Origin: a virus
Taxonomy: Duplodnaviria > Caudoviricetes
Reading direction: 5' to 3' (one strand)
DNA: 64,000 bases
Virus record (IMG/VR): IMGVR_UViG_3300021400_000529
Span: 32,001-96,000 of that record
The position numbers and the translations under genes were made by a program. Of this stretch, positions 18,121-46,436 are shown piece after piece (the stretch's first letter is position 1; each line of letters opens with the position of its first letter). The notes below the pieces were generated by a model, which saw only the letters and a list, made by a program, of their open reading frames with translations, did no database searches and was not told the origin of the DNA.

Positions 18121-18972
18121 ATGGTTAGAGATATTATTAAATTAGGTTCTCATAGAGTACTCTGTGGGGATGCAACTAGTAAAAAAGATGTGGATAAACT
18201 TGTTGGTAACCTGGAGGTTGATTTGTTGTTGACTGATCCACCGTATGGTATTAGTATTGTTCAACCTTCATCTGATGGGGTGGGTGGCAGAGTCAGTCCT
18301 CAATACAGTCAACCTTCAGCACAATTCAAGGGAGGGTCGGACACAAGGGAGGTCCGGGAATCACACCATTCAAGAAGTCGGAATCAGTGCAAAACCGAGC
18401 AAAACATTCACAACACACACACACCTAATGATAACAAGATCATTCCTGCAAGAACATATAAACCTGTCATCAATGATGACAAACCCTTCGACCCACAGCA
18501 CCTATTGGATCTGAATGTTCCTACAATACTATTCGGAGGAAACTATTTCGCAGACAATCTTCCTCAGTCTAACAAGTGGTTGGTATGGTATAAGAAACCT
18601 TCTCTTGATGGCAAACGGAATCATTTCAGTGACTGTGAACTGATGTGGACTAACCTTCCGGGAAAACGTGTTGACTGCTATCATCACACATGGAGTGGAA
18701 TGGTGAGGAAGGGTGAACGAAGACTAGAACTCAAAGAAAGAGTACATCCAACACAGAAACCTGTAGGATTATTAATGGATTTAATATGTGATTACACTGA
18801 ACCCAATGATGTAGTGTTGGACTTGTATGGTGGTTCTGGTTCCACATTAATTGCCTGTGAAGAAACTGGGAGGAGATGTCTGATGATGGAATTATCGAAG
18901 GATTATATAGAGATAATACAAGAACGATTCAATAATTATAGAAAAGAAAATGGGAAAAAACAGAAAAAATAG
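18121..18972 (+). CDS. DNA N6/N4 methyltransferase (phage ParB-MTase C-terminal type)
   Basis: LGSHRVLCGDAT, TDPPYG, HPTQKP, DLYGGSGST. Confidence 0.9.
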   Translation: MVRDIIKLGSHRVLCGDATSKKDVDKLVGNLEVDLLLTDPPYGISIVQPSSDGVGGRVSPQYSQPSAQFKGGSDTREVRESHHSRSRNQCKTEQNIHNTHTPNDNKIIPARTYKPVINDDKPFDPQHLLDLNVPTILFGGNYFADNLPQSNKWLVWYKKPSLDGKRNHFSDCELMWTNLPGKRVDCYHHTWSGMVRKGERRLELKERVHPTQKPVGLLMDLICDYTEPNDVVLDLYGGSGSTLIACEETGRRCLMMELSKDYIEIIQERFNNYRKENGKKQKK

Positions 18973-19813
18973 TTATTCGCCATTAACATTAAAAGAAAAT
19001 AGGGACTCTAAAGACATACGGATGCAAATGGCTTTTCTGAATAATGGATGGGATGATCCTACAGAATTAATAGATGCTTGTGCTGACAACAAAATAAAAA
19101 TTGGAGAAATTACTAAAGAATATGTTATCCTTGAAATGGATGATGGAACAAAGCTAAAAATGACATCAGCATTCTATGATAAATACAGAGCTACTGAAAT
19201 TAAATATGCGTCCCTTAATGAAATGTTTGAAAAACTCAATGAAATCCCCTCTTTATTCAGACATGATTTGAACGAAATAAAATTCGATTATATTCCAAAC
19301 TGGAGAAAGTCTTATTGGAACAGGGGGAACATATTCATTAATGCCCATTTCTTAGAAAATCCTAGGAATGATGATATGTTCATAATTGGAACTATCATAC
19401 ATGAGCATGCACACAATCTTGACTTAATGAAAAAGGGGATAACTGAAGAAACACCTATGGAAAAGGTGTTGAAAGATGGTTTCACCAACAATGACAAATT
19501 CAAGAAGTTAATTTCTAAAAAGGATGTTTCTGAATATAGTCAGGGTTATGGTGAAAAAAATGATCCAAGGTATGCGACTGAAAGTTTCGCAGATCTGATG
19601 GAAATAGTAGGAAAAGCACGAATTTATGGTGAAAATAGAATTGAAGCATCAATACTGGTAAAAGAATATAATGAAAAAACCGGAAAATATGATGAAAAAA
19701 CAGTTGGTTATATTGAATGGGCAAAAACTCATAAAGAATTAGCAGAATTTGGTAATAAAATATGGGATGCTGAAACATTAGAGGATGTTGAGAAAGCATT
19801 CAATGATTTGTGA
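18950..19813 (+). CDS. MGKNR-tagged zincin metallopeptidase
   Basis: HEHAHNLD...VSEYS...ESFAD. Confidence 0.8.
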   Translation: MGKNRKNSYSPLTLKENRDSKDIRMQMAFLNNGWDDPTELIDACADNKIKIGEITKEYVILEMDDGTKLKMTSAFYDKYRATEIKYASLNEMFEKLNEIPSLFRHDLNEIKFDYIPNWRKSYWNRGNIFINAHFLENPRNDDMFIIGTIIHEHAHNLDLMKKGITEETPMEKVLKDGFTNNDKFKKLISKKDVSEYSQGYGEKNDPRYATESFADLMEIVGKARIYGENRIEASILVKEYNEKTGKYDEKTVGYIEWAKTHKELAEFGNKIWDAETLEDVEKAFNDL

Positions 19814-19827
19814 AAAAAAAAGAATGT

Positions 19828-20118
19828 TTAATAAATAGGCGTATTTCCCTCATTATCAACACTACTAATAACGAAACGAGAACCATCATCTTTGATAAAA
19901 CATTCTAGGAATTCCTTATGTCCCAATAAGATGCCTTCCATATCATAATGTCCACTAAATTTACTACTGCCTGTAAATACTATAATTTCACCTTCATCTG
20001 TTTTTTCGGTATGATATTCAGTATAGGGGTGTGTTGGGAATATTTCATATTCTTCCATCACTTTTGGAAGTTGTATGTCTAATCCCAAGTTTTTTAGCAG
20101 TTCTTTTAATGTTGTCAT
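19828..20118 (-). CDS. zincin-partner (putative immunity/inhibitor) protein
   Basis: Starts MTTLKELL; AGGTGA RBS; convergent with the zincin. Confidence 0.75.
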   Translation of the reverse strand: MTTLKELLKNLGLDIQLPKVMEEYEIFPTHPYTEYHTEKTDEGEIIVFTGSSKFSGHYDMEGILLGHKEFLECFIKDDGSRFVISSVDNEGNTPIY

Positions 20119-20155
20119 AATTATCACCTTGTATACTTATATTCGTCTTTATTAA

Positions 20156-20170
20156 TATATAAACATTTTT
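20156..20170 (-). promoter_or_regulatory. archaeal BRE/TATA-like promoter for the minus-strand partner gene
   Basis: Minus strand reads AAAAATG-TTTATATA about 40 nt upstream of the start codon. Confidence 0.5.
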
Positions 20171-20216
20171 TTTGGGTTTTATTATAAAACTAACTAATTT
20201 AAACTAACAAAGTATT

Positions 20217-20996
20217 ATGTTTCAAAGAGAAAATTATATTATTTATCACAGTGATTGTATCAAACAGATGGAATACTTAGTAAATGAAAATGTTGAAGTG
20301 GACCTTATCCTTACTGATCCACCATACAACATCAGTAAAAAGAATGATAATCGTGACAGAAGTAAAATGAATGCTCCATGTATGAGGAGGAAAAAGCCAG
20401 TTAATTATGATTTTGGTGAATGGGATAACATGGAACGGGAGGAATTCTTAGACTTCACTGAAGATTGGTTTAACTTATGTACTCAACTGCTCCGAGATGG
20501 TGGTGCGATGATTTCCTTTTTCAGTAAGGAGGATGTGAATTATCTTGGTTGGCTTGGTAAGGCTTATGGTATGAGGACACGAACCATTTTCACATGGCAT
20601 AAAACTAATCCTGTTCCTTCTTTTCGGAAAGTGAATTATTTGAGTAGTTGTGAGTATGCTTGGATTGGTAGTAAGGGTGAAGCTGGTTGGACTTTTAATT
20701 TTAAGCAACAGAAGGAGATGCATAATTTCTTTGAAACACCTAATAAGAGTAGTTATGGTGTTACTGAGCATCCTACTGAAAAACCATTATCTTTAATCAG
20801 GCATTGGATTGAAATTCATTCAAATCCTGATGATGTTGTGTTGGATTGTTTTATGGGTAGTGGTACTACTGGAGTGGCATGTTTACAGTGTGGTAGAAAA
20901 TTCATAGGTATGGAACAGGATGAGAAGTATTACTTGATGGCAAAACAGAGAATAAATGAAGTTGGAAAAAATGGTAAACAAACCAAATTATTATAA
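20217..20996 (+). CDS. DNA N6/N4 methyltransferase (beta class)
   Basis: DPPYN, HPTEKP, DCFMGSGTTG. Confidence 0.92.
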   Translation: MFQRENYIIYHSDCIKQMEYLVNENVEVDLILTDPPYNISKKNDNRDRSKMNAPCMRRKKPVNYDFGEWDNMEREEFLDFTEDWFNLCTQLLRDGGAMISFFSKEDVNYLGWLGKAYGMRTRTIFTWHKTNPVPSFRKVNYLSSCEYAWIGSKGEAGWTFNFKQQKEMHNFFETPNKSSYGVTEHPTEKPLSLIRHWIEIHSNPDDVVLDCFMGSGTTGVACLQCGRKFIGMEQDEKYYLMAKQRINEVGKNGKQTKLL

Positions 20997-21007
20997 TATT
21001 TTAACTT

Positions 21008-25041: not shown

Positions 25042-25362
25042 ATGTCTGAAGTTACTTTAAAAGAGTTACTGCATAAATTTAATTTAGAATTAGATATTAG
25101 TTCAGTTTTATTGGATAAATCGATTAAATATTTTCAAAACAAGTCTTCCAAGGAGATCTTGGATTGCTATGTGGAACATCATACTGAAAAGGTAGATGGG
25201 AATATTATACACGTGTTTATGGAAGAGATGAATGGTAATCATCTTGAGTTAATTGTTGATGAAGAAAATAGTATGGTTACTGAATTGGAAATTTTGGATG
25301 ATGGTACTAGAAATGTGTTATTTTCATTTTCTGATGATGGGACAAGAAGGATATATGGTTAA
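25042..25362 (+). CDS. zincin-partner (putative immunity/inhibitor) protein
   Basis: VTLKELLHKFNLELDI...YVEHHTEKVDGNIIHVF aligns with 19828 and 29294; immediately upstream of a zincin. Confidence 0.75.
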   Translation: MSEVTLKELLHKFNLELDISSVLLDKSIKYFQNKSSKEILDCYVEHHTEKVDGNIIHVFMEEMNGNHLELIVDEENSMVTELEILDDGTRNVLFSFSDDGTRRIYG

Positions 25363-25371: not shown

Positions 25372-26187
25372 ATGGGAAAAAATCGTTCATCAAAGGGTCT
25401 GTCTGTAGGAAGTGTGTCAAATGATATTCAGTCATTATGCAAGTATTATGGGTATGAATTGGGTGAAGATTCTTTTGGAAATATAAGTGTTTATGATAGG
25501 GAGAATGATACTGAACTGGTAATTACACCTATCTTCATGGATATGCTTGAATACAATGAAGAACTTTACCAGGAAATGACTGGAAACTCTATTGAATACT
25601 TGAAACAAATTGTAACTGCTTATCATGACGCACCGTCTATTCTTAAAAAAGCGAATCAGTTCATAATGTTTGATGACGCAAGTAATCATCAGAACTTTAA
25701 AAAGGAAAGTTCATGGTTGGCTTATCATCAAGACTTTTTTTCTGAGGGTCATGGTATACTTATGTCGGATAGGATACTTACTCCTCGGGTGGAAATACCA
25801 TTTATTTTGTATCATGAAATGGCACATGGGTTGGATTTCACTACTGTTAATGGTTTTGAGAGGTATGCAGGTAGTCATAGTATCCATAATTTAATTGATA
25901 AATATGGGTCTGCTACTGCTTATAGTAAGGACAGGTATGGTAAGGGTTTTGACAGTGTGGATACGAAATATCGTGAAGACTTTGCAGAAATAATTGGAAT
26001 TGTATCTGCTTATAAAAATAATCCTGATTTTAAAGTAAATGATGTTGATGGGAAAATTGTTTCTGCCAGAAAATGGGTTGAAAACCATGAGGAATTATAT
26101 GAGTGGGGTTTAAATTATGTGGGAAGTATGAGTGTTGATGAGTTGGAGATTCCTTCATTGTATCCTGTGCCTGATATGTTTGATTAA
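25372..26187 (+). CDS. MGKNR-tagged zincin metallopeptidase
   Basis: HEMAHGLD...ATAYS...EDFAE. Confidence 0.8.
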   Translation: MGKNRSSKGLSVGSVSNDIQSLCKYYGYELGEDSFGNISVYDRENDTELVITPIFMDMLEYNEELYQEMTGNSIEYLKQIVTAYHDAPSILKKANQFIMFDDASNHQNFKKESSWLAYHQDFFSEGHGILMSDRILTPRVEIPFILYHEMAHGLDFTTVNGFERYAGSHSIHNLIDKYGSATAYSKDRYGKGFDSVDTKYREDFAEIIGIVSAYKNNPDFKVNDVDGKIVSARKWVENHEELYEWGLNYVGSMSVDELEIPSLYPVPDMFD

Positions 26188-28165: not shown

Positions 28166-28249
28166 ATGGGTAAAAACAGAACAAATGCAAACTTTGGACA
28201 GTCAAAGGGGGAACTTGTTTATTTTACTGCTGGTGGAAAAAAAATTTAA
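28166..28249 (+). CDS. MGKNR-tagged 27-aa micro-ORF (not in ORF track), possible relic
   Basis: Manually translated MGKNRTNANFGQSKGELVYFTAGGKKI. Confidence 0.5.
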   Translation: MGKNRTNANFGQSKGELVYFTAGGKKI

Positions 28250-28319: not shown

Positions 28320-29261
28320 ATGGGAAAAAATAGGAAAAGTAGTGGTGGAACTGGTGATAATGGAAATGAACCAACAACTTCTGATGAAATGTTCAATGAT
28401 GAACAATGGGAAAATGTGCATACAGCGGAAGAAATTGCGGAATTAACTGGATGGGAATTCACCAAGACACAAAGAGGTAGTTATAAATTTTATGATCGTG
28501 AACATGATTTAACATTGTTTATTGATAAGACAATGTTAACTAATGGTTTCATCAATGCGGATAGTGATGGTGGTAACCATCTTAAAAGTAATTATGGAAG
28601 TGCTCAACCTCAAGATCTTCGTGACATTGCTCGGATGGTTCATGAGTTGCCAGATAAAAATAAAGAAGCAACACCTCTTATTCTATTCAGAAATAATTTC
28701 AAAACAAGATATTTAGGTGAGCATGTTCATCACAGTGATTTCTGGGATGAAATTATTCCTGGACATGAAGTTGTTATTAACTCCTCTTCTTTCAAAAGTG
28801 TTGCTGGACATAGTCTTAGAAGAACACTTTTACATGAAACGTATCATGCAGAAGATTATATGAGGGGTACTGGCAGTAAATCATACGCTTCTGATGCTTT
28901 TGGTATTTCTAATAAACAGTCTTTCAAGAATGCTATTGACTTGGATGTTCAGAATTATGGTAGTAAAGGTATTTCGATGAATTCTGGTGGATATGCTCGT
29001 GGAAGTGTAACTTATTATAAGGAATGTTGGGCTGATGCTGCAAGTATTGTTCAACTTAAGAGGATGGGTTATTCTAATGAAAAAATTAAGTTACGTGATG
29101 GATCACTTGTAACTGTTGATGATTGGATTAAAACATATCCTAATACTTATAAATCTGTTTCAAATGAATTGGATAACAATGCTGTACTTCCATTCCAAAG
29201 GGGAGAAGATTATAATATAATAAGAGATTCGTTTGTGAATAAATATAAATTAAACAAGTAA
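28320..29261 (+). CDS. MGKNR-tagged zincin metallopeptidase
   Basis: True start ATG 28320; HETYHAED...ECWAD; close paralog of 36095. Confidence 0.8.
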   Translation: MGKNRKSSGGTGDNGNEPTTSDEMFNDEQWENVHTAEEIAELTGWEFTKTQRGSYKFYDREHDLTLFIDKTMLTNGFINADSDGGNHLKSNYGSAQPQDLRDIARMVHELPDKNKEATPLILFRNNFKTRYLGEHVHHSDFWDEIIPGHEVVINSSSFKSVAGHSLRRTLLHETYHAEDYMRGTGSKSYASDAFGISNKQSFKNAIDLDVQNYGSKGISMNSGGYARGSVTYYKECWADAASIVQLKRMGYSNEKIKLRDGSLVTVDDWIKTYPNTYKSVSNELDNNAVLPFQRGEDYNIIRDSFVNKYKLNK

Positions 29262-29293: not shown

Positions 29294-29629
29294 TTACATT
29301 TCTTTGATTTCTATGTCTTCATCTGTAAAGACAAGTTCTTTGTAAGTTTCAGCTTCTTCTGTGTTGTCATCAGGGTATCCTAAGTATGTTATGGTTACTT
29401 GGTTGTTTTCTTCTTTGTTTTCAGGGTTGATTATGATTTCAAAGTGTGTGTTGTCATCTATTGTTCCTTTGAATACGTGTATTTTTGTGTTGTTTCTTGT
29501 TTCTTCTGTGTATTCTTGGAATGATTCTATTTTTGTTCCGAATGGGTTTTCGATGTTGTAGTTTAGTATGTTATCTTCCAGTTTTATGTTGGTGTTGAAT
29601 TTGTTGAGTAATTCTTTTAGTGTGGTCAT
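29294..29629 (-). CDS. zincin-partner (putative immunity/inhibitor) protein
   Basis: Start MTTLKELLNKFN at 29629 with AGGAG RBS. Confidence 0.75.
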   Translation of the reverse strand: MTTLKELLNKFNTNIKLEDNILNYNIENPFGTKIESFQEYTEETRNNTKIHVFKGTIDDNTHFEIIINPENKEENNQVTITYLGYPDDNTEEAETYKELVFTDEDIEIKEM

Positions 29630-29643: not shown

Positions 29644-29976
29644 TTATTCCTTGGTTGGTAATGGTTTTCTCTGGTTTTCTGTGAATGGTTTCCATTCTTT
29701 GTATGGGAAGTTTTTTGTATGTTTTTGGTCCATTCTCCAGCTGGTTACTTTTACTTCTTCTTCATTTATTCGTTGGATTAGTAGTATTGCTATTCTGTCA
29801 TCATTGATTCTTAGCCATACATCTGGGTTTTCGGTGTTGGTGAATTCCATTATGTATCCTGTGTTGTCGATGTATGCTTTGTTGAATGTGTAATCACCGA
29901 TGTTTATGTTTTCAACTTTTTCTGAGTATCTGTAGAGTGCGTTGAATTTGTCTAATATTTGTTTTATGGTTGTCAT
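29644..29976 (-). CDS. zincin-partner family protein (second copy in tandem)
   Basis: MTTIKQILDKFN; AGGAGA RBS. Confidence 0.7.
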   Translation of the reverse strand: MTTIKQILDKFNALYRYSEKVENINIGDYTFNKAYIDNTGYIMEFTNTENPDVWLRINDDRIAILLIQRINEEEVKVTSWRMDQKHTKNFPYKEWKPFTENQRKPLPTKE

Positions 29977-30108
29977 ATTGGGTCATCTCCTATAAAATTT
30001 ATTTTTTTTTTATTTGTTATATATGTATGATGTTTATTGATATTTATATTTTATCTTTTATTATAGAATCTATTAATTAATTAATGTTGTGGTGAAATAG
30101 AAAAGAAA

Positions 30109-30828
30109 ATGGGAAAAAATAGAAAAACGGGTCAGACACCAAATGATGATGGTGCTCCGAGTAAAGAACCAAGCAAGGAATTTTTGATAAACCTTGCCAA
30201 GAAAATAGCAAAATGGGAATCATTCGGCCAAAATAATCCAACCCATGAAATGACTGAAGAAGAATTAGAATACATCAAGGAACATGAAGAAATACTTGAA
30301 TATGTGGACCGGTTTGGCAGACCCATAAATTCACTTTACAGAGTGGAAAGAGCTTATCATTTCACACCAGATGGTAGTAGTAGTATAGATGATATTCTGA
30401 AAAATTTACATAAAGGGGATATGTTAAGTTCCATTGATAATGACAAATCAAATTACCGCTCTTTTTCTGATGATGCTAAAGCTAATTACACATATCTTAG
30501 TGCAAACTGTCCATGGAGTAATGCTGTAATCATAAGAACTCATGGAAACATCTCCTATTTTGACCCACGGAAGTTAGCAGATGTGTACTCATCAGAAAAG
30601 GAAGTGTGGGTTAGTAAAAACAAGTTGAAGGTGGATAATCTTACAAGATTGCAAGGAAAAAATATCAGTGAAGAACTCCAACGAGAACTTGGCATCAACT
30701 CCGGCTATGATGTAGCACCAGAAGATGTTTTAATCATAGACGTATCCCCAGTGGGTGACAACTCTTATAGTAAACGAGAAGAAATGTGGGAACAAGTAAA
30801 ACGGAAATATCCAAGAGCATTTAAATAG
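30109..30828 (+). CDS. MGKNR-tagged ADP-ribosyltransferase-like protein
   Basis: LYRVE...YRSFSDD...SEKEVWV. Confidence 0.72.
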   Translation: MGKNRKTGQTPNDDGAPSKEPSKEFLINLAKKIAKWESFGQNNPTHEMTEEELEYIKEHEEILEYVDRFGRPINSLYRVERAYHFTPDGSSSIDDILKNLHKGDMLSSIDNDKSNYRSFSDDAKANYTYLSANCPWSNAVIIRTHGNISYFDPRKLADVYSSEKEVWVSKNKLKVDNLTRLQGKNISEELQRELGINSGYDVAPEDVLIIDVSPVGDNSYSKREEMWEQVKRKYPRAFK

Positions 30829-31480: not shown

Positions 31481-31924
31481 ATGGAAAATAATGATTTGTT
31501 GTTAATTGATTTTTTTAAACCGGAAGGATTGCATGATAGAATTATTTTATATTATTCTAATGGTAATGTTGAGGAGATTCGTGGAAAAGAGTGGGATAAA
31601 AAACATTATGAGGATGTGGCTGGACAAGTGGCTGATGAAGATACTATTTTCCGGGTGACATATCTTTTGAAGGAGCATGTTGCTTTTCAACCAGTGAATA
31701 ACTGGTCTAAGAATGATTTGAAGAATCGGTTGACTCCTTGTTTGGTAATTGTTCCTAAGAAAGTGTTCATTGATGATTTTGGATTTGATATTGATACTAC
31801 GCCCGCATGGGAAAGACCTTGGCCATTGTATGATTTGTTATTGGGTCATGAACAAATAATTAAAATATATTATGGTGATTCTTTTGATGATATTCATGAA
31901 AAGATGATGGGAGTACTTGTTTAA
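31481..31924 (+). CDS. hypothetical protein
   Basis: AGGAGGT RBS, 147 aa. Confidence 0.75.
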   Translation: MENNDLLLIDFFKPEGLHDRIILYYSNGNVEEIRGKEWDKKHYEDVAGQVADEDTIFRVTYLLKEHVAFQPVNNWSKNDLKNRLTPCLVIVPKKVFIDDFGFDIDTTPAWERPWPLYDLLLGHEQIIKIYYGDSFDDIHEKMMGVLV

Positions 31925-36094: not shown

Positions 36095-36988
36095 ATGGGT
36101 AAAAATAGGAAAAGTGGTGGTAGTGGTGGTGGAAACCAGCCTTCTGATGATGAATTAACATGGCAATCCGTAAAAGATGATCCTGAAAAAATTGCGGAGT
36201 TAACTGGTTGGAAATTCACCAAGTATGGTGATGGCAGTTATGATTTTTATGACAAAGAAAATGATTTTCATCTTAAATTAACTGCTCAAACATTAGAAGA
36301 ATTAAAAGATGCACCACTCATGCTTAACAGGATGGTAAAAATAGTTTATAACTTGCCAGATATGAATAAGCAGGTAACACCGAGTATGTATATTATATCT
36401 CCACCACCATATAGGAATGGAGTTTATGGTCAACATATGTCTATCCAGAATAAATATACTAAGGAAGTGCTTGGTCATAGTGTAGCAATTAACTCATCAG
36501 TATTCACAGAAGATGATGATGAAGTTACAAGGATTATGTTACATGAAACTAATCATGCACTTGATTATATTATGGGTGGACTTAAAGACAAAACCAGTAT
36601 TTCCCATTCACGTGAGTTTAAAAATGCTCTTAAATTAGATGGTCCATCCACAGATTATGGTGAATCAACAAAGTATAAAATAAATAAAAATGGTATTATC
36701 ACTGGAGAGTATTCAGAGAGGAGTTTGTATACTAAAGGTTCTAAGTGGTTGACTGAGAATTATGCTGAAGCTGGAAGTATTGTGCAACTTAAAAGATTAG
36801 GGTATGGTTCATCTGAGATTGAATTGCCTGGTGGTAAGTATGTGACGGTTGATGATTGGTGTGAATCTCATAGTCATGTTTATAATGTGGTTAATGATTT
36901 CCTTGATGATTATGATATGAATAATTATGGTAAACCTAATGTTAGTCATGAGATGATTGATAAGCGGTATTCTAATAATATTATTTAG
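36095..36988 (+). CDS. MGKNR-tagged zincin metallopeptidase
   Basis: HETNHALD...STDYG...ENYAE. Confidence 0.8.
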   Translation: MGKNRKSGGSGGGNQPSDDELTWQSVKDDPEKIAELTGWKFTKYGDGSYDFYDKENDFHLKLTAQTLEELKDAPLMLNRMVKIVYNLPDMNKQVTPSMYIISPPPYRNGVYGQHMSIQNKYTKEVLGHSVAINSSVFTEDDDEVTRIMLHETNHALDYIMGGLKDKTSISHSREFKNALKLDGPSTDYGESTKYKINKNGIITGEYSERSLYTKGSKWLTENYAEAGSIVQLKRLGYGSSEIELPGGKYVTVDDWCESHSHVYNVVNDFLDDYDMNNYGKPNVSHEMIDKRYSNNII

Positions 36989-37305
36989 TTGTTTGTGGTT
37001 ATTTCATAGTTTTCGTCAAGTATTGTGCTGGTGTATACTGGTGTTTTACTGTCTTCTGTGTGTATGATTTCTGTCCATGATGGTGGTGTGTTTAAGTCGA
37101 GTATGTTTTCGATTTTTACTAGTTTTCCGTCTACTTTGTTTTCTGTGGTGAATACGTGGATTGTTTTTCCTTCTATTGTTTCCTTGTGGTATTCTCCATA
37201 TGTTTTGATGGGTTCTCCTAGTTGGTAATTTAGTACATGTTCTGGAATATCATTTTCTGGTGTTATTTTGTAATGTTTAATTAAATCTTTTATTGTTTTT
37301 ATCAT
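36985..37305 (-). CDS. zincin-partner (putative immunity/inhibitor) protein
   Basis: MIKTIKDLIKHYKI...YGEYHKETIEGKTIHVF; stop overlaps the zincin stop. Confidence 0.75.
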   Translation of the reverse strand: MIKTIKDLIKHYKITPENDIPEHVLNYQLGEPIKTYGEYHKETIEGKTIHVFTTENKVDGKLVKIENILDLNTPPSWTEIIHTEDSKTPVYTSTILDENYEITTNN

Positions 37306-37461
37306 TTCTTTCAGCCTCAAATTATTTTATTTTTTTATTTGGTTGGTATGTATGTTGTTTTAATTATTTAATTGTTAAGGATTTTATTATAAAATGGTAT
37401 GATGTTAAAGGTTGTGTGTTTTATAAATAGTGATAATGGAAAGTAATGGTGGTTTTTTGTT

Positions 37462-38121
37462 ATGTCAAATGAAGATAATGATGAATATAATTATGATGAA
37501 AGAATTAAGAATGAAACTGTGAAAGCTTTTGCTTATTTTAACACTTACTTGGAGTTAGGACCAAATCGTTCACTGAGTAAAGTACGAGAGAAACATAATA
37601 ATGATATTAGTTTACATCAGTTAAAGAATTATAGTAAAAAATATCATTGGGTTTCCAGAGCAAACAAGAAAGATGAAGATGACTTACAAGTACATAAGGA
37701 AAAGTTACGAGAGGAACAGGAACAGTACTTTGATAAGAGAATGGAACAACTTGACCAGTATCATCAAGCAACAGATGCTGTTCTTGGTCAATTGATGGTT
37801 GACCTCGGACTTATTCCAAATCCAAAAACAAAAGAGTTCGAACCCAATGACCGTGTGAACAGTACTACAGTTGCCAACAGTATTCAAAGTCTTACTAATG
37901 CTAATGCTGTAACTACTAAATTAGCTCTTCGTTTCCTTGGTTTACCAGAGCAAGTTAATGATACACAGGAAGTGGAAGTTAAAGCTGATGTTTCCACAGA
38001 TTATAATGAGGAGTTGAATAAACGGTATGCTGAGTTTAGTGAATCCATCATGGACAAAGCATTCATTAACAAACAGTTAGATTTGATAGATAAAATGATT
38101 GAAAACAAGAATAAGCAATAA
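37462..38121 (+). CDS. probable terminase small subunit
   Basis: AFAYFNTYLELGPNRSLSKV...YHWVSRA HTH-like N-terminus plus coiled coil; lies upstream of portal and TerL. Confidence 0.6.
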   Translation: MSNEDNDEYNYDERIKNETVKAFAYFNTYLELGPNRSLSKVREKHNNDISLHQLKNYSKKYHWVSRANKKDEDDLQVHKEKLREEQEQYFDKRMEQLDQYHQATDAVLGQLMVDLGLIPNPKTKEFEPNDRVNSTTVANSIQSLTNANAVTTKLALRFLGLPEQVNDTQEVEVKADVSTDYNEELNKRYAEFSESIMDKAFINKQLDLIDKMIENKNKQ

Positions 38122-38136: not shown

Positions 38137-39126
38137 ATGGGTAAAAATAGGAAAAGTGCTGGTGGTGGTGCTGGAGAACCAATTCCCACTGAACCAGAAA
38201 TAGATTATTCAGAACAAAACAATGAAGTGTTCCAAGAAATATGTAAAGAAAAGGGTGTTGGACCTAAAGCTAAACAAAAATTAATAGAAATTTTAGAATT
38301 TTGTAATGACAACAACCTAGAATTAACTAAAGGTATAACAATATCATCTCCTAAAAAAGATAATCCTTGGTTTAAGTATGGTGGAACTGCACGGGCAACT
38401 ATTGTTGACAAGGAAACCGGTAAGAAAATCAGTATTTTTGATGACATGCTCAAAGGAAAAAATGCTGATGAATTATCCAAAGAATCATTGGATAACCTGT
38501 TAAAAGGTATACGGTATGAATATGAACATACAAACCCAGAATTCCATAATCTGTATTCTGACATTTTGTTAACAAACCATCGTTTAATACAGGATAGTGG
38601 TAAATGGGTTGCTAGTGGTGGATACGCATTCTTTGACCCGGTAGTACCGAATGCAATTACTATTAGAAGTAGTATGTTGGGTAAACAAGATTTCACTAAA
38701 CTGGGTAAAAATTCATATGGTCATCAATGGAATGAAAACTCTGTTAAAAAGATGGCCGCCACTATTGCTCATGAAAATGGTCATGCTTATGATTATCATG
38801 TGATTGGTAAGGGTACTGGTACTGACCAACCTTCTATTTTCACTGAACATGGACGAAATACTAATACTATTGGTCCATGCTCTTATGCTACAGATGTTCC
38901 TGGTGAAACAATTTCAACAGTCTGTGAGATGGTTATTAATAGAAGAGTTAGAAGTGATGCTAATTTGAGTGATGGCACGAGTATTGATGATGCGTACCAT
39001 GATAAGTATGGTAAATGGCCATCTTCTGTGCCTTCTGCTACGGAGAGTAAGAGAATGTATGAAATATGGTCCAATGATCCACAGTGGGCTCCTTTGATTG
39101 CTGAAGTTGAAGGGTTTATGTTATAA
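38137..39126 (+). CDS. MGKNR-tagged zincin metallopeptidase
   Basis: HENGHAYD...CSYA...GET. Confidence 0.78.
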   Translation: MGKNRKSAGGGAGEPIPTEPEIDYSEQNNEVFQEICKEKGVGPKAKQKLIEILEFCNDNNLELTKGITISSPKKDNPWFKYGGTARATIVDKETGKKISIFDDMLKGKNADELSKESLDNLLKGIRYEYEHTNPEFHNLYSDILLTNHRLIQDSGKWVASGGYAFFDPVVPNAITIRSSMLGKQDFTKLGKNSYGHQWNENSVKKMAATIAHENGHAYDYHVIGKGTGTDQPSIFTEHGRNTNTIGPCSYATDVPGETISTVCEMVINRRVRSDANLSDGTSIDDAYHDKYGKWPSSVPSATESKRMYEIWSNDPQWAPLIAEVEGFML

Positions 39127-39205: not shown

Positions 39206-39562
39206 TTAATATTTTACTCCCCATTGTTCTCCTTTGTAGTCTAAGTCGTAGGAGATTGGTTCCTCATATTTTTTGTTGGTTGGTTGTTGTGTGATGGTTA
39301 TTGTCATGGAACGGTAGTCTTCTGGTGTGTAATTGATTGTTATTTCATAGTCTTTGAATTTGTATGTGTATGTTTCTGTTTTTTCGTTTGTTGTATGTGT
39401 TGGTTGTGGTATTTGGTTTAGTGTTACTGTTTCCTCTTTGAATAGTGGCTTTGTTTGTGGGTTGTCTGAGAACAGTATTGTTTCTTTGAGTTTTTTGCTC
39501 ATGTTTTCTGTGTTTATGTTGGTTTTGTGTTTTTTTATGATGTTTTCTATGGTTATGTTCAT
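39206..39562 (-). CDS. zincin-partner (putative immunity/inhibitor) protein
   Basis: MNITIENIIKKHKTNI; AAGGTGA RBS; convergent with the zincin. Confidence 0.68.
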   Translation of the reverse strand: MNITIENIIKKHKTNINTENMSKKLKETILFSDNPQTKPLFKEETVTLNQIPQPTHTTNEKTETYTYKFKDYEITINYTPEDYRSMTITITQQPTNKKYEEPISYDLDYKGEQWGVKY

Positions 39563-39884
39563 TTTGGGTTCACCTTCATATTATTTTTTTTTTATTTGGT
39601 ATATTATTGTATTTGTTAACATTTATATTTTACTATTTCATTATAAAACCTTAATACTTTAACTGGTAAAAAAAGAATATCCATTCAAATATAACCAAAT
39701 TAACCAAATTAATAAGTAATTTAATGATAAAACCAACAAATAATCATCATATATTAAATTAAACAATTCAGAATAAGAATTTGTACTATTTAATATTAAT
39801 ATATATATTAATAGAAATAATTAAAAGGAAAAACCAAACCATCATAAAATAAAGAAAAAAAAGGAGTGGAAAACACAATCCAAA

Positions 39885-41504
39885 ATGGCAATACAACAAT
39901 TTATAGTAACAAACCATAACAACGAATGGGAAGTCATAGAAAAAAGCATACTGGACAGGTATGTGATTAAAGAAGATGACCTCAAAGTACAATCCAAATC
40001 AGTACATGACGAATTTGATTACAGTGAATTCAAAAGACCACAATTCAACCTCAAAAAATTATGTGAACTACTAGACAACAACACATACCACAGACGATGT
40101 TGCGAAGTAGTAGCCGAAGATGCAAGTGGATATGGATACAATATAGTTCCACTAAACCAGGTACATGATGATTCTAACGAAAATGAAGATCAAAAAGAAT
40201 TCATAGAAGAATTTCTTAAATCATTATATACTCCCATAAACACAGCACTATACAAATACTGCTATGATAAAAGAGCAGTAGGATGTGGGTGTATGGAAAT
40301 ACTACGTGAAAGTACAAGCAAAAGCAACATAGTAGACCTTAACCCAATACCTATATTCAACATGCTCGTACACAGAGATGGAGTAAGAGTACTTCAAAGA
40401 GTAGGAGCAAAACAACGATGGTTTGTATTATATGGTAAAAATGTAACTCCTGATGGCGTAAAATTTGATGTTCATTGTGATACTGGTAAACAGGTAGAAT
40501 ATGATACACTTGACCCAACAGAAAGAGCTAACGAACTCATATGGGGAGTAAACTATGCACCACATACTCCAACATATGGAAGTGCCAAAATAGTTCCAGC
40601 AATAAGAGCAATATTCGGAGACCTTAGCAGAGCAAGATACAACAATAGTTTCTTCCAAAACTATGGAATGCCATCATACGCAGTAGTGGTTACTGGTGAC
40701 TTTGATACGGGAGCAGACCCAGAGGACCCAGATTATGATGAAACAGAAACCTTGAAATATAAAATCAAGGAGAATATGGAAAATGCTGTAAAAAATCCTC
40801 ACAGTGCATTTGCCATGCTTATTCCTTCCTCAGAAGGTAATGTTCATGTTCAGTTCCACAAATTAAATGCTGGTGGAAGTAATGAGGCAAGTTTCAGATT
40901 ATACCGAGCAGATAACAGGGAAGAAGTAATGAGTGCTCATGGAGTACCACCTTACCGGATAGGACTTGCAATTAATGGAACACTTGGTGGAAGTACAAGT
41001 GTTGAAAGTGGAAACATTTACAACACCAGTATTATTCAACCAATCAAAAAGAAAAACGAGGACATTGTAAATGAAGTGTTGGTTAATGAGTATAATCAGA
41101 GGTTTGGGAAAGAAGAAACACAACTTTCATGGGTATTTAAAATAGAAGAAATAGATAAAAGAGATTACTTCCGTGATTTACAAAGTGCAAATATGTTATT
41201 TAACATGGCTGCCATGACTCCACGTCAAGTTTGTGAAAGTCTTGGAAAACCTATTGGTGCTATAGCAGACCCTGATAATCCATACCTTGATGAATATTTC
41301 ATACATGGAACTCCTTTATCATTAATGTTCAAGAACAATGAGATGGGTGAGTCACATAGTGTTCTTGATAAATTACATATTCAACAGCAAATGTGGATTA
41401 ATGAGTTACAGGCAAGATTGGGTGCTATGCAAATGGGTATTGATGCTGGTATGATTCCAACAAACGCACCGAATCCCACATTTGATGAATTAAACAAGGA
41501 CTAA
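39885..41504 (+). CDS. portal protein (PBSX/HK97-like)
   Basis: YNNSFFQNYGMPSYAVVVTG, EVMSAHGVPPYRIG, MTPRQV motifs; 539 aa. Confidence 0.88.
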   Translation: MAIQQFIVTNHNNEWEVIEKSILDRYVIKEDDLKVQSKSVHDEFDYSEFKRPQFNLKKLCELLDNNTYHRRCCEVVAEDASGYGYNIVPLNQVHDDSNENEDQKEFIEEFLKSLYTPINTALYKYCYDKRAVGCGCMEILRESTSKSNIVDLNPIPIFNMLVHRDGVRVLQRVGAKQRWFVLYGKNVTPDGVKFDVHCDTGKQVEYDTLDPTERANELIWGVNYAPHTPTYGSAKIVPAIRAIFGDLSRARYNNSFFQNYGMPSYAVVVTGDFDTGADPEDPDYDETETLKYKIKENMENAVKNPHSAFAMLIPSSEGNVHVQFHKLNAGGSNEASFRLYRADNREEVMSAHGVPPYRIGLAINGTLGGSTSVESGNIYNTSIIQPIKKKNEDIVNEVLVNEYNQRFGKEETQLSWVFKIEEIDKRDYFRDLQSANMLFNMAAMTPRQVCESLGKPIGAIADPDNPYLDEYFIHGTPLSLMFKNNEMGESHSVLDKLHIQQQMWINELQARLGAMQMGIDAGMIPTNAPNPTFDELNKD

Positions 41505-41566: not shown

Positions 41567-42463
41567 ATGGTAAACTCTGATAAAATTTTAAATTATCTTA
41601 TCAAACAACATTATAACTCTTTACAACTCTTAGAGAGTAATTATGATACATCAGTTATAGGATTTCGTTCAGGATTATTTAAATTATTCCAAGATACACA
41701 AAGAGATATAAACAAATACTTTGGGAACAATCCAGTTAAATTAGAATCAGAATCAGATATAATTTCTGTAATTAATGAAATACAACCCATCACTGATTCA
41801 TTTCTTGGAAAGTATGAGAAATTATTGAATAAATGGTTAAACCTCTCAGTAACTGTAGGAAGGAAACATGGCTTAATAATGAACACCCATAACCTGATTG
41901 ATTCCGACATGTATGAAGTAAATATTATGGGAGGTGCTGATAATAAACAGGGTGGGTATGGGAACCTTAACCCTTTTTCTGATGAGGTTTCTTTTCAGAG
42001 ACAGTATCTTGAAAAAAAAATAATAAATAATCTCTCACGAATATTAGAGGAAAATAAACTTTATGAAAGTAATATTTCATCAGATAATCATAGAAAAGTA
42101 GTTATTAACCAACCAGATACCTTGTTTAACCATTTTTTCAACCAATTATCATCTACTTTTAATAATAACGTTTCTTCTTTATTGTTACATCGTTGGATTA
42201 ATTATGGATTATACTCCCAATATGAACAGTATAATGAGTATCACGTATGGTATTCTCGTGAGGATGAGCATGTTCGTCCTTCACACCAGAAGTTGCACGG
42301 GGAGGTAAGGAAAGTGGGAGAACTTTTCTCAAATGGTTGTTTATATCCTGGTGATGAAAATGGAATACCAGAAGAAGTGATGAACTGTCGATGTTACACA
42401 TTACCCTTTAATGTAAATGATTTACCATCAGGTTTAAGGAGTGAAATAAGAAAATATGGGTAA
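41567..42463 (+). CDS. MuF / SPP1 gp7-family head morphogenesis protein (short form, no fused toxin)
   Basis: WYSREDEHVRPSHQKLHGEV...FSNGCLYPGD...EVMNCRC; directly after portal. Confidence 0.88.
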   Translation: MVNSDKILNYLIKQHYNSLQLLESNYDTSVIGFRSGLFKLFQDTQRDINKYFGNNPVKLESESDIISVINEIQPITDSFLGKYEKLLNKWLNLSVTVGRKHGLIMNTHNLIDSDMYEVNIMGGADNKQGGYGNLNPFSDEVSFQRQYLEKKIINNLSRILEENKLYESNISSDNHRKVVINQPDTLFNHFFNQLSSTFNNNVSSLLLHRWINYGLYSQYEQYNEYHVWYSREDEHVRPSHQKLHGEVRKVGELFSNGCLYPGDENGIPEEVMNCRCYTLPFNVNDLPSGLRSEIRKYG

Positions 42464-43271
42464 AAATCGGAAAAGTAGTGATGGTAAAAGTGGAGGAATT
42501 GTTAATCCTAACATAACTGGTGAAGTTCAAAAGGAATTGGATGAACTGGTTAAAGAGGAGGGAATAACATATACAATCACAGAAAATGGTGTGACAGTTG
42601 AACGAAATGGTATTGTCTATGAAGTAGGTAATGTGTTTCTTGAAAATAAAAGATTCAGTATTAATGGAAACACACCAGAAACACTTAAAAAAGTATTCAC
42701 ATATTATGATGAGTTCCCAAAAGAAATTCAAACAGTTAATAAAATTAATTTAATCTCTGACCCTACCAAAAAACCAGAAGTATTCGGATATTATAAACCA
42801 GACAACCCTAATGAAATAACATTATTACCATCAATACTTTCAGATAAGTATTATGCGAGTGATGGGAATTATAACAGTTTCAGGTATGTGATGTATCATG
42901 AGTCTGCACATAGTCTTGATTATTCTATGACCAAGTCTTGGGATCCTTTCACGGAAAGTCGATGGTGGATGATGGCTAATGCTGGGAAAGAAGCAGTATC
43001 TTATTATGGAAAGTATGCTTATATGGTTGGTGGTAATCCTGACCGTGAAAACTTTGCGGAGATGGTTGCTATACAAGCAACATATGAAGTTACTGGTCGG
43101 TGTGATAATATTCAGAAAGCAACGGAGTATTCATCGGATGAGGTTGTTTATAAAACTTACGAGGATTGGCATAAATCTAGTCCTGATTATGGAAAATATG
43201 ATCAATCATATGAATGGGTTGATGAAGTGTACCAGTTGGTAAAAGAGAAATATGAGAAAGGATATTATTAA
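42456..43271 (+). CDS. MGKNR-tagged zincin metallopeptidase
   Basis: HESAHSLD...VSYYG...ENFAE; 8-nt overlap with the MuF end. Confidence 0.8.
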   Translation: MGKNRKSSDGKSGGIVNPNITGEVQKELDELVKEEGITYTITENGVTVERNGIVYEVGNVFLENKRFSINGNTPETLKKVFTYYDEFPKEIQTVNKINLISDPTKKPEVFGYYKPDNPNEITLLPSILSDKYYASDGNYNSFRYVMYHESAHSLDYSMTKSWDPFTESRWWMMANAGKEAVSYYGKYAYMVGGNPDRENFAEMVAIQATYEVTGRCDNIQKATEYSSDEVVYKTYEDWHKSSPDYGKYDQSYEWVDEVYQLVKEKYEKGYY

Positions 43272-43543
43272 CTCATAATTATGTGTTTACCATTTTTATC
43301 ATATGCATTGTAATGTCGGTCGGATGTTATGGATAATTCTTGTGTGGTTTCATTGTATTCTACTGTTATTTGTAAATCTATGTCTTCGATTTTTCCGGAA
43401 AATGTGTGGATTGTTTGTTTGTTTTCAGTTCTTTTTTCATACTTGCATGTGTGTTCATCAATGTATAGTTCCATTTCACCTAATTTGGGGGGGATGGTAA
43501 TGTTTATGTTTTTGTATTTTAGTAAATTTTTAAGCGTTATCAT
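43268..43543 (-). CDS. zincin-partner (putative immunity/inhibitor) protein
   Basis: MITLKNLLKYKNINITIP...YEKRTENKQTIHTFSG. Confidence 0.75.
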   Translation of the reverse strand: MITLKNLLKYKNINITIPPKLGEMELYIDEHTCKYEKRTENKQTIHTFSGKIEDIDLQITVEYNETTQELSITSDRHYNAYDKNGKHIIMS

Positions 43544-43702
43544 GGTTTTTGTTTTGTTTTAATTATTATTTATGTTTTATTATTATGCCTTTGTACTGTT
43601 ATGTTCATACTTTAATTTCGTCTTTTGTTACTCATATTGTGCTTGTTGGATTATATTCTTTCTATTTTATATATTTTAACTATTTTATGATAAAACCAAA
43701 TT

Positions 43703-45211
43703 ATGACTACTGATACTGATATTCCCATTAATTATTATAACCCTGCTTCATTGAATATTGCGATGTGGGGTCAATTAATTACGGAAGGTAAATGGGAGCC
43801 AAGACATTTTGACAAGATAATCATAGAATTCCTTTACTATGCTTTACAGGGTAAGATTTCTAAGATAATGATAAGCGTACCTCCAAGGCATGGAAAAAGT
43901 ACTTTGATAAGTAAAATATTTTGTTCATATTTTCTTGCAAACTTTCCTAATGAACAAGTAATTCTTTCATCATATTCTATGGGTTTGGCAAGTGAATTTG
44001 GTGGTGAAGTAAAAGATATATTAAACTTTTACTCTGATCAAACCTTACTCAAAGCTGGATTATCCTCTGACAGTAAAGCAAAAAACAAGTTCCATATGAG
44101 TCCACCTTTCAAGGGACAAATGTTAAGTGTGGGTGCAGCAGGTTCTATTTTAGGATTTGGTGCTGGATTATTTATCATTGACGACCCTATTAAAAACATT
44201 GCTGAAGCAGAAAGTCCAGTTTTACAAGAGAAACTTAACTCATGGTTTCATACCACAGCAAAAACAAGGCTTCAGAAAAGAAGCAATGGTCTTCCACCAA
44301 TAATGTTAGTTATTGCACAAAGATTACATGTGAATGATTTACAAGGTATTATTAAACGGAATGAACAATGGATACCAGCAAAAGAAGCACTAGAAGCATT
44401 ACGTGAAGGAAAAGGATTTAATGAAAATGTATGGATTGACTTAACACTACCAGCAATATGTGAAAACCCAGAGGAAGACCTTCTTGGAAGAGAAGAAGGA
44501 GAAGTATTATGGCCAGAACAACAAAACTATGAAAACTTAATGGCTGCTCGTAGAAGTATGGGAAGTTACTTGTTTAATGCAGTTTACCAAGGTAATCCTT
44601 CTATAAGACAAGGAAACATATTCAGAAGAGAATGGTTTTATGATGAAGGAGAAGTCACACCTAACTGTATTATTGATAAATCCGAACTTCCTGAAGATTT
44701 ACCAACACAAAGATACTGGGATTTTGCGGCCAACAGTAAAGTCAAAAAAGGAACTCCTCATGGTGACGAAACCAGTGGTGTATTAACAGGTTATGATGGA
44801 ACAACATTATATGTAATAGATTTGGTTAACAACAATTTCACTCCAAAACAAGTAAATGAAACATTCATCAGGACAGCATTGAAAGATGGTAAACAAACAA
44901 AAGTATTTATCGAGGAAGAACCTGGAAGTGGTAGCCGAATTCTTATTAACATGTACAGAAACAATCCAAAACTCAAGGGTTGGAATATAAGACCTGATAA
45001 AGTTAAGGGTCCTAAGAATATTCGAAGTTTTTCACTTGAAAATCTGGCAGAAAGTGGTAATATCAAGTTTGTAAGGAACAAATGGAATAATAAGATGATA
45101 GAACAGTTAATCAGTTTCACTGGTGAGGATGGTGAACGTGATGATATTGTGGACAGTTTAACTGGTAGTGCTCGTATGTGGTTGCATAAGAAAACTAAAA
45201 TAATATTATAA
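43703..45211 (+). CDS. terL: terminase large subunit
   Basis: Walker A VPPRHGKS, Walker B FIIDDP, YQGNP, RYWDFA, EEEPGSG, RDDIVDS. Confidence 0.93.
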   Translation: MTTDTDIPINYYNPASLNIAMWGQLITEGKWEPRHFDKIIIEFLYYALQGKISKIMISVPPRHGKSTLISKIFCSYFLANFPNEQVILSSYSMGLASEFGGEVKDILNFYSDQTLLKAGLSSDSKAKNKFHMSPPFKGQMLSVGAAGSILGFGAGLFIIDDPIKNIAEAESPVLQEKLNSWFHTTAKTRLQKRSNGLPPIMLVIAQRLHVNDLQGIIKRNEQWIPAKEALEALREGKGFNENVWIDLTLPAICENPEEDLLGREEGEVLWPEQQNYENLMAARRSMGSYLFNAVYQGNPSIRQGNIFRREWFYDEGEVTPNCIIDKSELPEDLPTQRYWDFAANSKVKKGTPHGDETSGVLTGYDGTTLYVIDLVNNNFTPKQVNETFIRTALKDGKQTKVFIEEEPGSGSRILINMYRNNPKLKGWNIRPDKVKGPKNIRSFSLENLAESGNIKFVRNKWNNKMIEQLISFTGEDGERDDIVDSLTGSARMWLHKKTKIIL

Positions 45212-45229
45212 TATAATAAGGAATGAATT

Positions 45230-46141
45230 ATGGGAAAGAATAGAAAAAGTGGTGGTGGTTCTGGTGGTGGTAACAGTGCTCCGAGAGAAACACCAGAACA
45301 GTTCCAGCAGAGAGTTGACTTAGCTGAAAGTCTGATGACTGTTGAAATGCATATGATGGAAAAAGGAGCATTATCCAAGCCACAAATCAAAAGGTTGCTT
45401 AATACAGTAATGGATGAAAATACTGATTATGTTGGTTTGGTTCGGAAGAATGGTGCTTTTTTCCTACGGTTTGAGGAAAAGTTAGTGTCTCCTGATGGTA
45501 CTGAGCATACACATACACTTAACTTCAATACAGCTTCTTATAAGAATATGTATAAGAAGGATGCTATCATATCTATTGAGGAAATGATTTCTGCTTATAG
45601 GGATATTCCTGAGTTTAATAGGAATATGGCTTATAATTATTATTTTGGACAAACTACAGATGGTGATTGCAGTAAGCTTGGAGGATTATTTAAACCATCA
45701 GACAAATCAGTAAATATTGGTGTAGGATGTTTTAGTAACAAGAAAAGAAGTAGTAAAGATTGGATAAGAAATGTTTTAAACCATGAAAATACTCATGCTT
45801 CTGATTATGTAAATGTGGGTGGTTATATGACTCATTTAAGTCGAGATTCACCAGTTTTCAAAAGAATTATGAGTACAAACAAGGCTAGTGCATACAGTGA
45901 AAGTTATGGTGGTTGGAAATATTATTCAGAAAGTATAGCTGAAGCAGTAGCAGTAACAAGGATGTACAGGAAATATGGTAATGATCATGCTTTGATTTGT
46001 GATCCGGAAAAAAGTTATGTTGTAGGTAATGAAATTGATTATAAGACGTGGGCTAAACGGTATCCTGACTTGGCTAAGTTTGCTAACGATTTCATTGATT
46101 GTGATAGTGAATCGAAATTAAGGGGATTGTTTGAAGTTTAA
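45230..46141 (+). CDS. MGKNR-tagged zincin metallopeptidase
   Basis: HENTHASD...ASAYS...ESIAE. Confidence 0.8.
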   Translation: MGKNRKSGGGSGGGNSAPRETPEQFQQRVDLAESLMTVEMHMMEKGALSKPQIKRLLNTVMDENTDYVGLVRKNGAFFLRFEEKLVSPDGTEHTHTLNFNTASYKNMYKKDAIISIEEMISAYRDIPEFNRNMAYNYYFGQTTDGDCSKLGGLFKPSDKSVNIGVGCFSNKKRSSKDWIRNVLNHENTHASDYVNVGGYMTHLSRDSPVFKRIMSTNKASAYSESYGGWKYYSESIAEAVAVTRMYRKYGNDHALICDPEKSYVVGNEIDYKTWAKRYPDLAKFANDFIDCDSESKLRGLFEV

Positions 46142-46160
46142 TTTAAGAATGTTATTGGTT

Positions 46161-46436
46161 TTACATTAAATCTTCAGTGCCATCTTCATGTACAACATAT
46201 CCGGCGGTTGGTAATCCTTCAGATTCTTTTTCAAATGTGATTGTTTTTTTATTTTCATTGATTGTGATTGTGTCTGTGATTGGTCCTGTTGTTTTTGTGA
46301 AGATGTGTTGGTTACCTTCTTGTTTGTATGTGTACTGGTCTGCTGGTGGCATTATTAATCCTATTGTATGCTCTCTGAGTGTTTCTGGTATGTTCGTTTG
46401 AATATTATATTCTTTTATTAAATCATTAACTTTCAT
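46161..46436 (-). CDS. zincin-partner (putative immunity/inhibitor) protein
   Basis: MKVNDLIKEYNIQTNIP...YTYKQEGNQHIFT; AGGTGA RBS. Confidence 0.72.
   Translation of the reverse strand: MKVNDLIKEYNIQTNIPETLREHTIGLIMPPADQYTYKQEGNQHIFTKTTGPITDTITINENKKTITFEKESEGLPTAGYVVHEDGTEDLM

Follow-up and report, generated by a model that had tools for sequence, protein, structure and literature searches.

Tagged zincins and the small genes beside them

The stretch analyzed here (the window, 64,000 nucleotides [nt] long) corresponds to bases 32001–96000 of the IMG/VR virus record IMGVR_UViG_3300021400_000529, a genome of 137,316 bp estimated to be 95% complete; the guanine-plus-cytosine (GC) content of the window is ~32%. 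Twenty-two open reading frames (ORFs) in the window start with the pentapeptide MGKNR or MGKSR, referred to below as the tag, and seven of the 22, all + strand and all starting MGKNR, contain an HExxH motif and are here called zincins. Each zincin adjoins a small untagged ORF of 91 to 118 amino acids (aa), its partner, and these pairs are the subject of this work. An initial annotation, made from the letters of the window without database searches, had described seven MGKNR-tagged HExxH proteins each lying beside a small gene, and this was confirmed in all seven cases. No extra zincin or partner copies were found elsewhere in the 137-kb genome.

The zincin genes are located at 18950–19813 (zincin 1, 287 aa), 25372–26187 (zincin 2, 271 aa), 28320–29261 (zincin 3, 313 aa), 36095–36988 (zincin 4, 297 aa), 38137–39126 (zincin 5, 329 aa), 42456–43271 (zincin 6, 271 aa), and 45230–46141 (zincin 7, 303 aa). 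Their products align as one family with pairwise identities of 17 to 36%, within which H151, E152, H155, and D158 (HExxHxxD) and W257 are invariant. A downstream (E/D)xxA(E/D) motif, ExxAD in zincin 1, is conserved in all seven and gives the gluzincin arrangement; a weak profile alignment to an M48 peptidase (E 0.06) pairs this motif with ExxAD. Just 5′ of zincin 3, a 27-codon ORF starting MGKNR (28166–28249) looks like the truncated remnant of a further tagged gene.

Attributing the zincins to a named family was not possible. No Pfam zincin model matched them above its cut-off at E ≤ 0.1, and PHROG and PDB profile searches returned nothing significant. The succession of HExxHxxDY and (E/D)xxA(E/D) is shared with the M34 gluzincins, that is, anthrax lethal factor and the Pro-Pro endopeptidases (PPEPs), but all zincin matches in that direction lie below significance, and there is no Pfam match (ATLF, PF07737). 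A PDB profile comparison with PPEP gave E 0.5, and a Foldseek comparison with lethal factor gave a template modeling (TM) score of 0.38 at E about 0.3, from a zincin model with a predicted local distance difference test (pLDDT) score of only 62. In a protein atlas searched by features, the ATLF cluster is a weak neighbor of the zincins (score 0.92), and the weak look-alikes of zincin 4 are the ATLF, IrrE, and SprT clusters. Any likeness to lethal factor or PPEP is therefore weak at the level of both sequence and predicted structure.

Six of the seven zincin–partner pairs are convergent, with stop-codon gaps of −4 to +79 nt. The partners in these pairs, all on the minus strand, are 19828–20118 (96 aa; 14 nt from zincin 1), 29294–29629 (111 aa; zincin 3), 36985–37305 (106 aa; zincin 4), 39206–39562 (118 aa; zincin 5), 43268–43543 (91 aa; zincin 6), and 46161–46436 (91 aa; 19 nt from zincin 7). 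The stop codons of 36985 and 43268 overlap those of zincins 4 and 6 by 4 nt, and the gaps in the other convergent pairs are 14 to 79 nt. A further minus-strand gene, 29644–29976 (110 aa), lies upstream of 29294, probably on one transcript with it. In the remaining pair, the + strand partner 25042–25362 (106 aa) is codirectional with zincin 2 and upstream of it. Apart from the seven minus-strand partners (25042, the eighth, is on the + strand), every minus-strand ORF of ≥90 aa in the window overlaps + strand genes, which bears out the description of the seven as its only credible minus-strand genes. The earlier statements that the partners lack the MGKNR tag and have ribosome-binding sites of their own also stood, the latter for seven of the eight, which are preceded by a GGAG/GGTG-type site. 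A conserved MTT[LIV]K N terminus, together with a ribosome-binding site, places the likely starts of four partners at 20118, 29629, 37305, and 46436; AAGGAG precedes the ATG at 29629, and with the revised starts 29294 and 29644 no longer appear to overlap.

A TTTTATAATAAAA box lies 70 to 91 nt before the start codon in four of the six minus-strand transcription units of the window. On the minus strand, TTTATAATAA is found at 20179–20188, 70 nt upstream of 19828, and again at 37384–37393, 88 nt upstream of 36985; TCTATAATAA is found at 30058–30067, 91 nt upstream of 29644, and TTTATAATGA at 39638–39647, 85 nt upstream of 39206. In a set of 28 partner genes, the box is present upstream of 15, compared with 1% of random 140-nt windows. 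The partners thus probably have promoters of their own. Additional minus-strand boxes of the TTTATAATAA type at 31551, 33212, and 40230 have no ORF of ≥50 aa downstream and may be what is left of partner units that were lost, or else antisense promoters.

Homology, selection, and predicted fold of the partners

Since a profile of all eight partners matches its members by construction, leave-one-out hidden Markov models (HMMs) were run against all 733 ORFs of the genome. Six of the eight partners were recovered, with E from 6e-5 to 1e-8: 19828 (E 9.5e-9), 36985 (E 2e-8), 25042 (E 5e-8), 29294 (E 7e-8), 43268 (E 1e-6), and 46161 (E 6e-5). These form the core subtype. The left-out member was the top nontraining match for all six and also for 29644, the representative of a B subtype, for which E was only 0.016; 39206 was not recovered among the 733 ORFs (E > 10). 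Subfamily alignments built from database relatives were then compared profile versus profile with hhalign. The B subtype aligned with the core profile over its N-terminal half with a probability of 94% (E 1.2e-7), and the 39206 subtype over 31 N-terminal columns only, with a probability of 17% (E 1.5e-3). The single partner family of the initial annotation is thereby upheld for six genes by the leave-one-out HMMs and for 29644 by profile comparison, so that seven of the eight partners are homologous. It does not extend to 39206, which shares position, size, and N-terminal motif only and whose homology is unproven; orthologs of 39206 are the database proteins P0014, P0025, and P0042 and a gene at 17609 in the related contig L006.

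The partner family is unannotated. An exhaustive profile search yielded 51 cluster representatives at 50% identity, nearly all of 85 to 120 aa and unnamed in the library searched, and 43 database relatives carry neither a source name nor a precomputed Pfam domain. Pfam, PHROG, and PDB sequence profile searches gave nothing significant for the partners, and the protein atlas, searched by features, gave no usable match. Two database relatives depart from the usual architecture: P0080 (176 aa) consists of the N-terminal half repeated in tandem, and P0058 (393 aa) has a C-terminal domain of the 46161 type after 296 residues of low-complexity-looking sequence, which may be a gene-call run-through.

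Ortholog comparisons gave ratios of nonsynonymous to synonymous substitution (dN/dS) of 0.14 to 0.40 across the 19828 type (0.19 to 0.40), the 46161 type (0.14 to 0.26), and the 29644 type (0.26), and partner genes of these three types are under purifying selection. The 39206 type gave 0.91, from very few substitutions. A model of 19828 built from eight sequences (pLDDT 88.9, predicted TM score 0.79) is predicted to consist of two short N-terminal helices followed by a five-stranded antiparallel meander. The predicted complex of zincin 1 (18950) with 19828 had an interface score (ipSAE) of 0.00 in both runs, which we take as evidence neither way.

These properties bear on whether the partners act as proteins at all. 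Convergent transcription into the 3′ end of an enzyme gene could damp or insulate late transcription, with the small ORF being secondary. The overlapping stop codons of two pairs and the short gaps of the others, across which convergent transcripts would overlap, suit such an RNA-level effect, as does a + strand that is otherwise uninterrupted. It does not account for purifying selection on the partner protein, for a confidently predicted fold, or for a protein family conserved across 51 clusters, and codirectional pairs exist at 25042 and in the related contigs L018 and L022. Because pair orientation is not fixed, the protein rather than antisense transcription seems to be what matters, and we consider the RNA-level explanation very improbable.

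Pairing in related genomes and a second enzyme class

The relatives examined were G001, a 141.8-kb IMG/VR genome whose large terminase is 77% identical to that of the virus studied here, the large metagenome contigs L006, L008, and L009, and several shorter contigs. Zincins were counted in the window, G001, L003, L006, L008, L009, L014, L015, and L020, and a partner was scored if it lay within 120 bp. About 25 of 30 zincins (about 83%) have a partner, including all seven in the window. Orthologs of zincin 1 in L015 (92% identical) and L003 (77%), of zincin 5 in L006 (94%), and of zincin 7 in L006, L008, and L009 all retain it. Pairing persists even though the sequences diverge to 17 to 36% identity, and it is kept despite changed surroundings: the upstream genes are different in L003, and the MuF-like head gene that precedes zincin 6 in the window is replaced in L001, L009, and L020. 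In L001, a relative of zincin 6 (49% identical) comes after the portal gene. A related-locus search with the zincin alignment A2, in which the tag was the only search pattern, gave no match.

Partners are found with a second class of tagged protein as well. The members of this family (A4) share an invariant Arg (R79), an invariant E154, a nearly invariant F-S, and in most cases an [EQ]xE-like motif; R, G, F(S), and E stand out as invariant in the family alignment. No Pfam, PHROG, or PDB match was found for them, and they are ADP-ribosyltransferase (ART)-like by the R-S-E motif only. One of them, the MGKNR-tagged product of 30109–30828 (+ strand), is divergent from 29644, the start of which lies 132 nt away, and is its candidate cognate effector. 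L014 and G001 show this arrangement too, and the gene order in L014 is exactly that of the window: zincin, core partner, B partner, and divergent ART-like gene. Elsewhere, relatives of the B subtype adjoin ART-like genes in convergent orientation (L009, L015, and L020) or codirectionally (L018, binned to Methanosphaera). Since B-subtype relatives pair with ART-like genes, 29644 probably belongs with an ART-like effector such as 30109; the role first given to it, that of an additional partner for zincin 3 (28320), is less probable.

Partners accompany six of the 23 ART-like genes (26%) counted across the window and related loci. These six partners all belong to the B subtype, and core-subtype genes adjoin only zincins. 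The claim that no ART-like gene has a partner consequently holds for strict adjacency within the window (zero of six) and fails across the wider set. Likewise, the count of seven paired zincins out of seven stands as adjacency, but it included 39206, of unproven homology, and 29644, whose subtype is linked to the ART-like family. Tagged proteins that are neither zincin nor ART-like have no partner in the window, where 15 of the 22 tagged proteins are partnerless.

The tag itself varies between lineages. In G001 (L011–L013; for example, C1:76293–92576), zincins, ART-like proteins, and other small proteins start with MASKG or MASKY, and the partners there still start with MTT[LIV]K. The tag is thus lineage specific, as expected if it coevolves with a recognition partner in the head. 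Two roles considered for the partner N terminus were rejected. The partners are not likely to bind the tag, since G001, which has MASKG as its tag, retains the same partner N-terminal motif. A plug for the zinc site, in the style of TIMP or the serralysin inhibitors, is unsupported in view of the retention of MTT[LIV]K in the B subtype, beside enzymes that are not zincins, and of the partner model, in which the N terminus is packed into the fold.

Several loci show other gene combinations. The gene after the portal in L001 (1463–1783), L009 (13862–14185), and L020 (2703–3023) encodes a tagged coiled-coil protein of ~106 aa rather than MuF; next in order are a zincin or an ART-like gene, likewise tagged, and a partner. 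Partner-family members without adjacent tagged cargo occur in L016, L019, and L022. In L022 (85–1346) and L023, contigs of 27% GC, an ARPP-1 gene (PF20208) precedes the codirectional partner-family gene P0092 by 32 nt; a role proposed for ARPP in conflict systems is to act on ADP-ribose (PMC9503650). L019 (22–3861), from Methanosphaera sp. rholeuAM6, has at least three tandem HExxH genes of ~200 aa, YgjP-like by eye only, followed by an 83-aa ORF and a B-subtype partner. A YgjP-like gene (PF01863) also lies upstream of P0054 on its contig, and one distant member of the partner family is situated among cellular-looking genes.

The distribution of partners also bears on whether they are dedicated chaperones or loading factors that keep particular effectors soluble or loading competent up to encapsidation but do not enter the capsid with them. 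Small size, a mostly acidic character, and a gene beside that of the cargo typify class I type III secretion chaperones. The partners are likewise small and mostly acidic (median isoelectric point [pI] 4.9), they lie one to one beside their enzymes with subtype specificity, and they lack the tag. However, the median pI of the whole genome is low too (5.2), and because 15 of the 22 tagged proteins of the window are partnerless, loading as such needs no partner. Location on the opposite strand and promoter-like boxes of their own are unexpected for a factor required stoichiometrically with late cargo, and the members in L016, L019, and L022 have no adjacent tagged cargo to load. Partner presence falls from ~83% of zincins to 26% of ART-like genes and to none of the other tagged genes of the window, a pattern easier to reconcile with neutralization of an activity than with a role in packaging generally. 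We consider a chaperone or loading function quite unlikely.

A proposed role as neutralizers of capsid-delivered enzymes

The pairs are encoded among head and packaging genes. The window contains genes for the small terminase subunit (37462–38121), the portal protein (39885–41504), a MuF-like head protein (41567–42463, + strand; Pfam PF04233, E 8e-8; PHROG head morphogenesis family), the large terminase subunit (43703–45211), and an XkdF-type prohead protease (48531–50198); the MuF-like gene runs 8 nt into the start of zincin 6, in a different frame. A tyrosine integrase (PF00589, above cut-off) is encoded outside the window, near the end of the record (genome positions 135237–135827), and for this reason the virus is probably temperate. 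Between 15535 and 24992, six DNA methyltransferase genes, including N6/N4 types and a 563-aa C5 type, are interleaved with tagged genes, and an Eco57I-like fused restriction-modification gene is found at 10791–13805.

Identical or near-identical contigs derive from sheep-rumen metagenomes, and relatives of one partner subtype are found on contigs binned to Methanosphaera metagenome-assembled genomes (MAGs). The host is probably a Methanosphaera-like methanogen, as judged from two short binned contigs and base composition. The large terminase of the virus was not found in two Methanosphaera MAGs, and a megablast search of 20 kb against GenBank phages gave no match. Weak host markers were PMBR (E 0.006) and Transglut_core (E 9e-5), both below their cut-offs.

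The explanation we favor, and to which we would give about an even chance, is that the small genes encode subtype-specific neutralizers of capsid-delivered enzymes, in a dispersed variant of the MuF-toxin/immunity loci. The enzymes would be loaded into the capsid through their N-terminal tag and delivered with the viral DNA, the core subtype serving the HExxH zincins and the B subtype the R-S-E ART-like family. The partners, which would stay in the cell because they lack the tag, would suppress the activity of the cognate enzyme in the producing cell, and they might shield lysogens from enzymes injected by sibling virions, protection of lysogens being possible because the virus has an integrase. 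Packaging through the tag, enzyme toxicity, physical binding, inhibition, and expression timing are the steps that we infer. Partner subtype tracks enzyme class, pairing survives divergence, orientation varies, and other tagged genes are partnerless; neutralization therefore fits better than loading or an RNA effect. Members that lack an adjacent effector or lie beside other enzyme genes resemble, by analogy, those of immunity superfamilies. The toxin/immunity-like reading of the initial annotation thus remains the best fit, given the conserved pairing, the correspondence of subtype with effector class, the absence of the tag from partners, the promoter-like boxes, and a probably temperate virus, even though three of the statements in that annotation do not hold.

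Several observations weigh against neutralization. Zincins without partners in related genomes, named at the outset as a finding that would speak against the reading, exist: about 25 of ~30 keep a partner and five do not (G001 80568, G001 88256, L006 19075, L006 19957, and L020 9926), of which G001 88256, L006 19075, and L006 19957 are directly beside a paired zincin or within the same tandem run. Seventeen of the 23 ART-like genes are also partnerless. Cophylogeny of the pairs, taken as the correlation of partner and zincin distances, was not significant among the seven window paralogs (Mantel r 0.24, p 0.18); across 20 pairs it was (r 0.46, p 5e-4), driven by orthologs in synteny. Searches with the partner model in PDB Foldseek, VIA-align wide, the ESM atlas, and BFVD gave nothing above background (best Z 5.4), and the rows for the inhibitors Ugi (Z 4.3 to 4.8) and cystatin (Z 4.2) are within that background. 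The TTTTATAATAAAA box also precedes some + strand genes and is therefore best read as an ordinary promoter of the TATA/B recognition element type, which alone does not establish separate timing. Toxicity of the zincins is an assumption, and module duplication alone could create many adjacencies.

This last point can be taken further: adjacency may be mainly historical, a two-gene unit having been duplicated repeatedly, with the partners acting independently of the neighboring enzyme, for example in host takeover, antidefense, or regulation. The upstream regions of several partner genes are alike, as from en bloc duplication, and the nonsignificant cophylogeny of the window paralogs, the partnerless zincins, and the partners without an adjacent tagged effector all agree with such a history. 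Yet pairing has outlasted divergence to about 20% identity and the rearrangement of neighbors in L003, L001, L009, and L020, and subtype tracks enzyme class, including at new junctions between B-subtype and ART-like genes in several orientations. A mainly historical adjacency strikes us as unlikely.

The pairs stand close to several known systems. Among MuF toxin genes of temperate phages, 89% are followed by an ORF of <150 aa, and metallopeptidases make up 20% and ARTs 14% of the toxin domains (Jamet et al. 2017, PMC5576092). As in the MuF polymorphic toxin loci, the genome is that of a head-tailed, probably temperate virus, genes for metallopeptidase- and ART-like enzymes are interspersed with those for portal, MuF, and terminase, the enzyme gene has a small unannotated ORF right beside it (here for 7/7 zincins, 91 to 118 aa), and delivery with the DNA is proposed; zincin 6 (42456) directly follows MuF. 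In contrast to those loci, which are defined by fusion of the toxin to MuF, the enzymes here are free-standing and bear a five-residue N-terminal tag, and the six other zincins are not beside MuF. The genome carries seven zincin modules where a MuF system has one, most partners are encoded on the opposite strand, two enzyme classes share one partner superfamily, and the host is probably an archaeon.

The polyvalent proteins of phages and conjugative elements likewise draw on zincin-like metallopeptidases, ARTs, DNA methylases, ParB, and MuF, in a setting of virion packaging and for delivery along with the DNA (Iyer et al. 2017, PMC5512222). Their zincins have an Asp three residues after HExxH, and the paper makes no mention of immunity proteins (PMC5512222). 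All seven zincins here share that Asp (HExxHxxD), but the domains are encoded by separate genes and not in one giant polypeptide. The Pfam model of the polyvalent-protein MPTase, which we take to be PF18818, did not match the zincins at E ≤ 0.1. In work by Zhang et al. from 2012, the SUKH and Imm families are reportedly small, fast-evolving proteins encoded next to toxins, with stand-alone copies and with one immunity scaffold said to be reused against unrelated toxin domains. The partners are similar in being small genes beside enzymes, in combining one scaffold with different enzyme classes, and in having stand-alone copies; they differ in that no sequence or fold match to these superfamilies was found, the system belongs to a virus, and ejection from the capsid would be the means of delivery. 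The codirectional two-gene operon of type II toxin–antitoxin systems is not the arrangement here, where six of seven pairs are convergent.

A full-text literature search for the tag found no relevant paper. The dispersed multimodule layout, the opposite-strand partners, the use of one scaffold for two enzyme classes, and the probable archaeal host look new. A broader proposal, which we regard as doubtful, is that temperate viruses, probably of gut and rumen methanogens, carry an effector/immunity arsenal in which many free-standing enzymes are addressed to the capsid by a lineage-specific N-terminal pentapeptide (MGKNR here, MASKG in a relative) and the subtypes of a single, hitherto undescribed small-protein scaffold neutralize at least two unrelated enzyme classes, being expressed from their own promoters in lysogens and protecting kin; such a system would have no described precedent among archaeal viruses. 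Should the partners not be neutralizers, the strict linkage of subtype to enzyme would still need explanation. If they are cognate neutralizers, the genome holds seven or eight natural enzyme/inhibitor pairs that share one new scaffold and already contain contrasts in specificity, and the unannotated family of 51 clusters at 50% identity would gain a definition. The pairs would also be a tractable case of effector delivery by an archaeal virus, extending the theme of MuF toxins and polyvalent proteins to probable viruses of methanogens, and would help to explain how viruses of rumen methanogens gain control of their hosts or police them.

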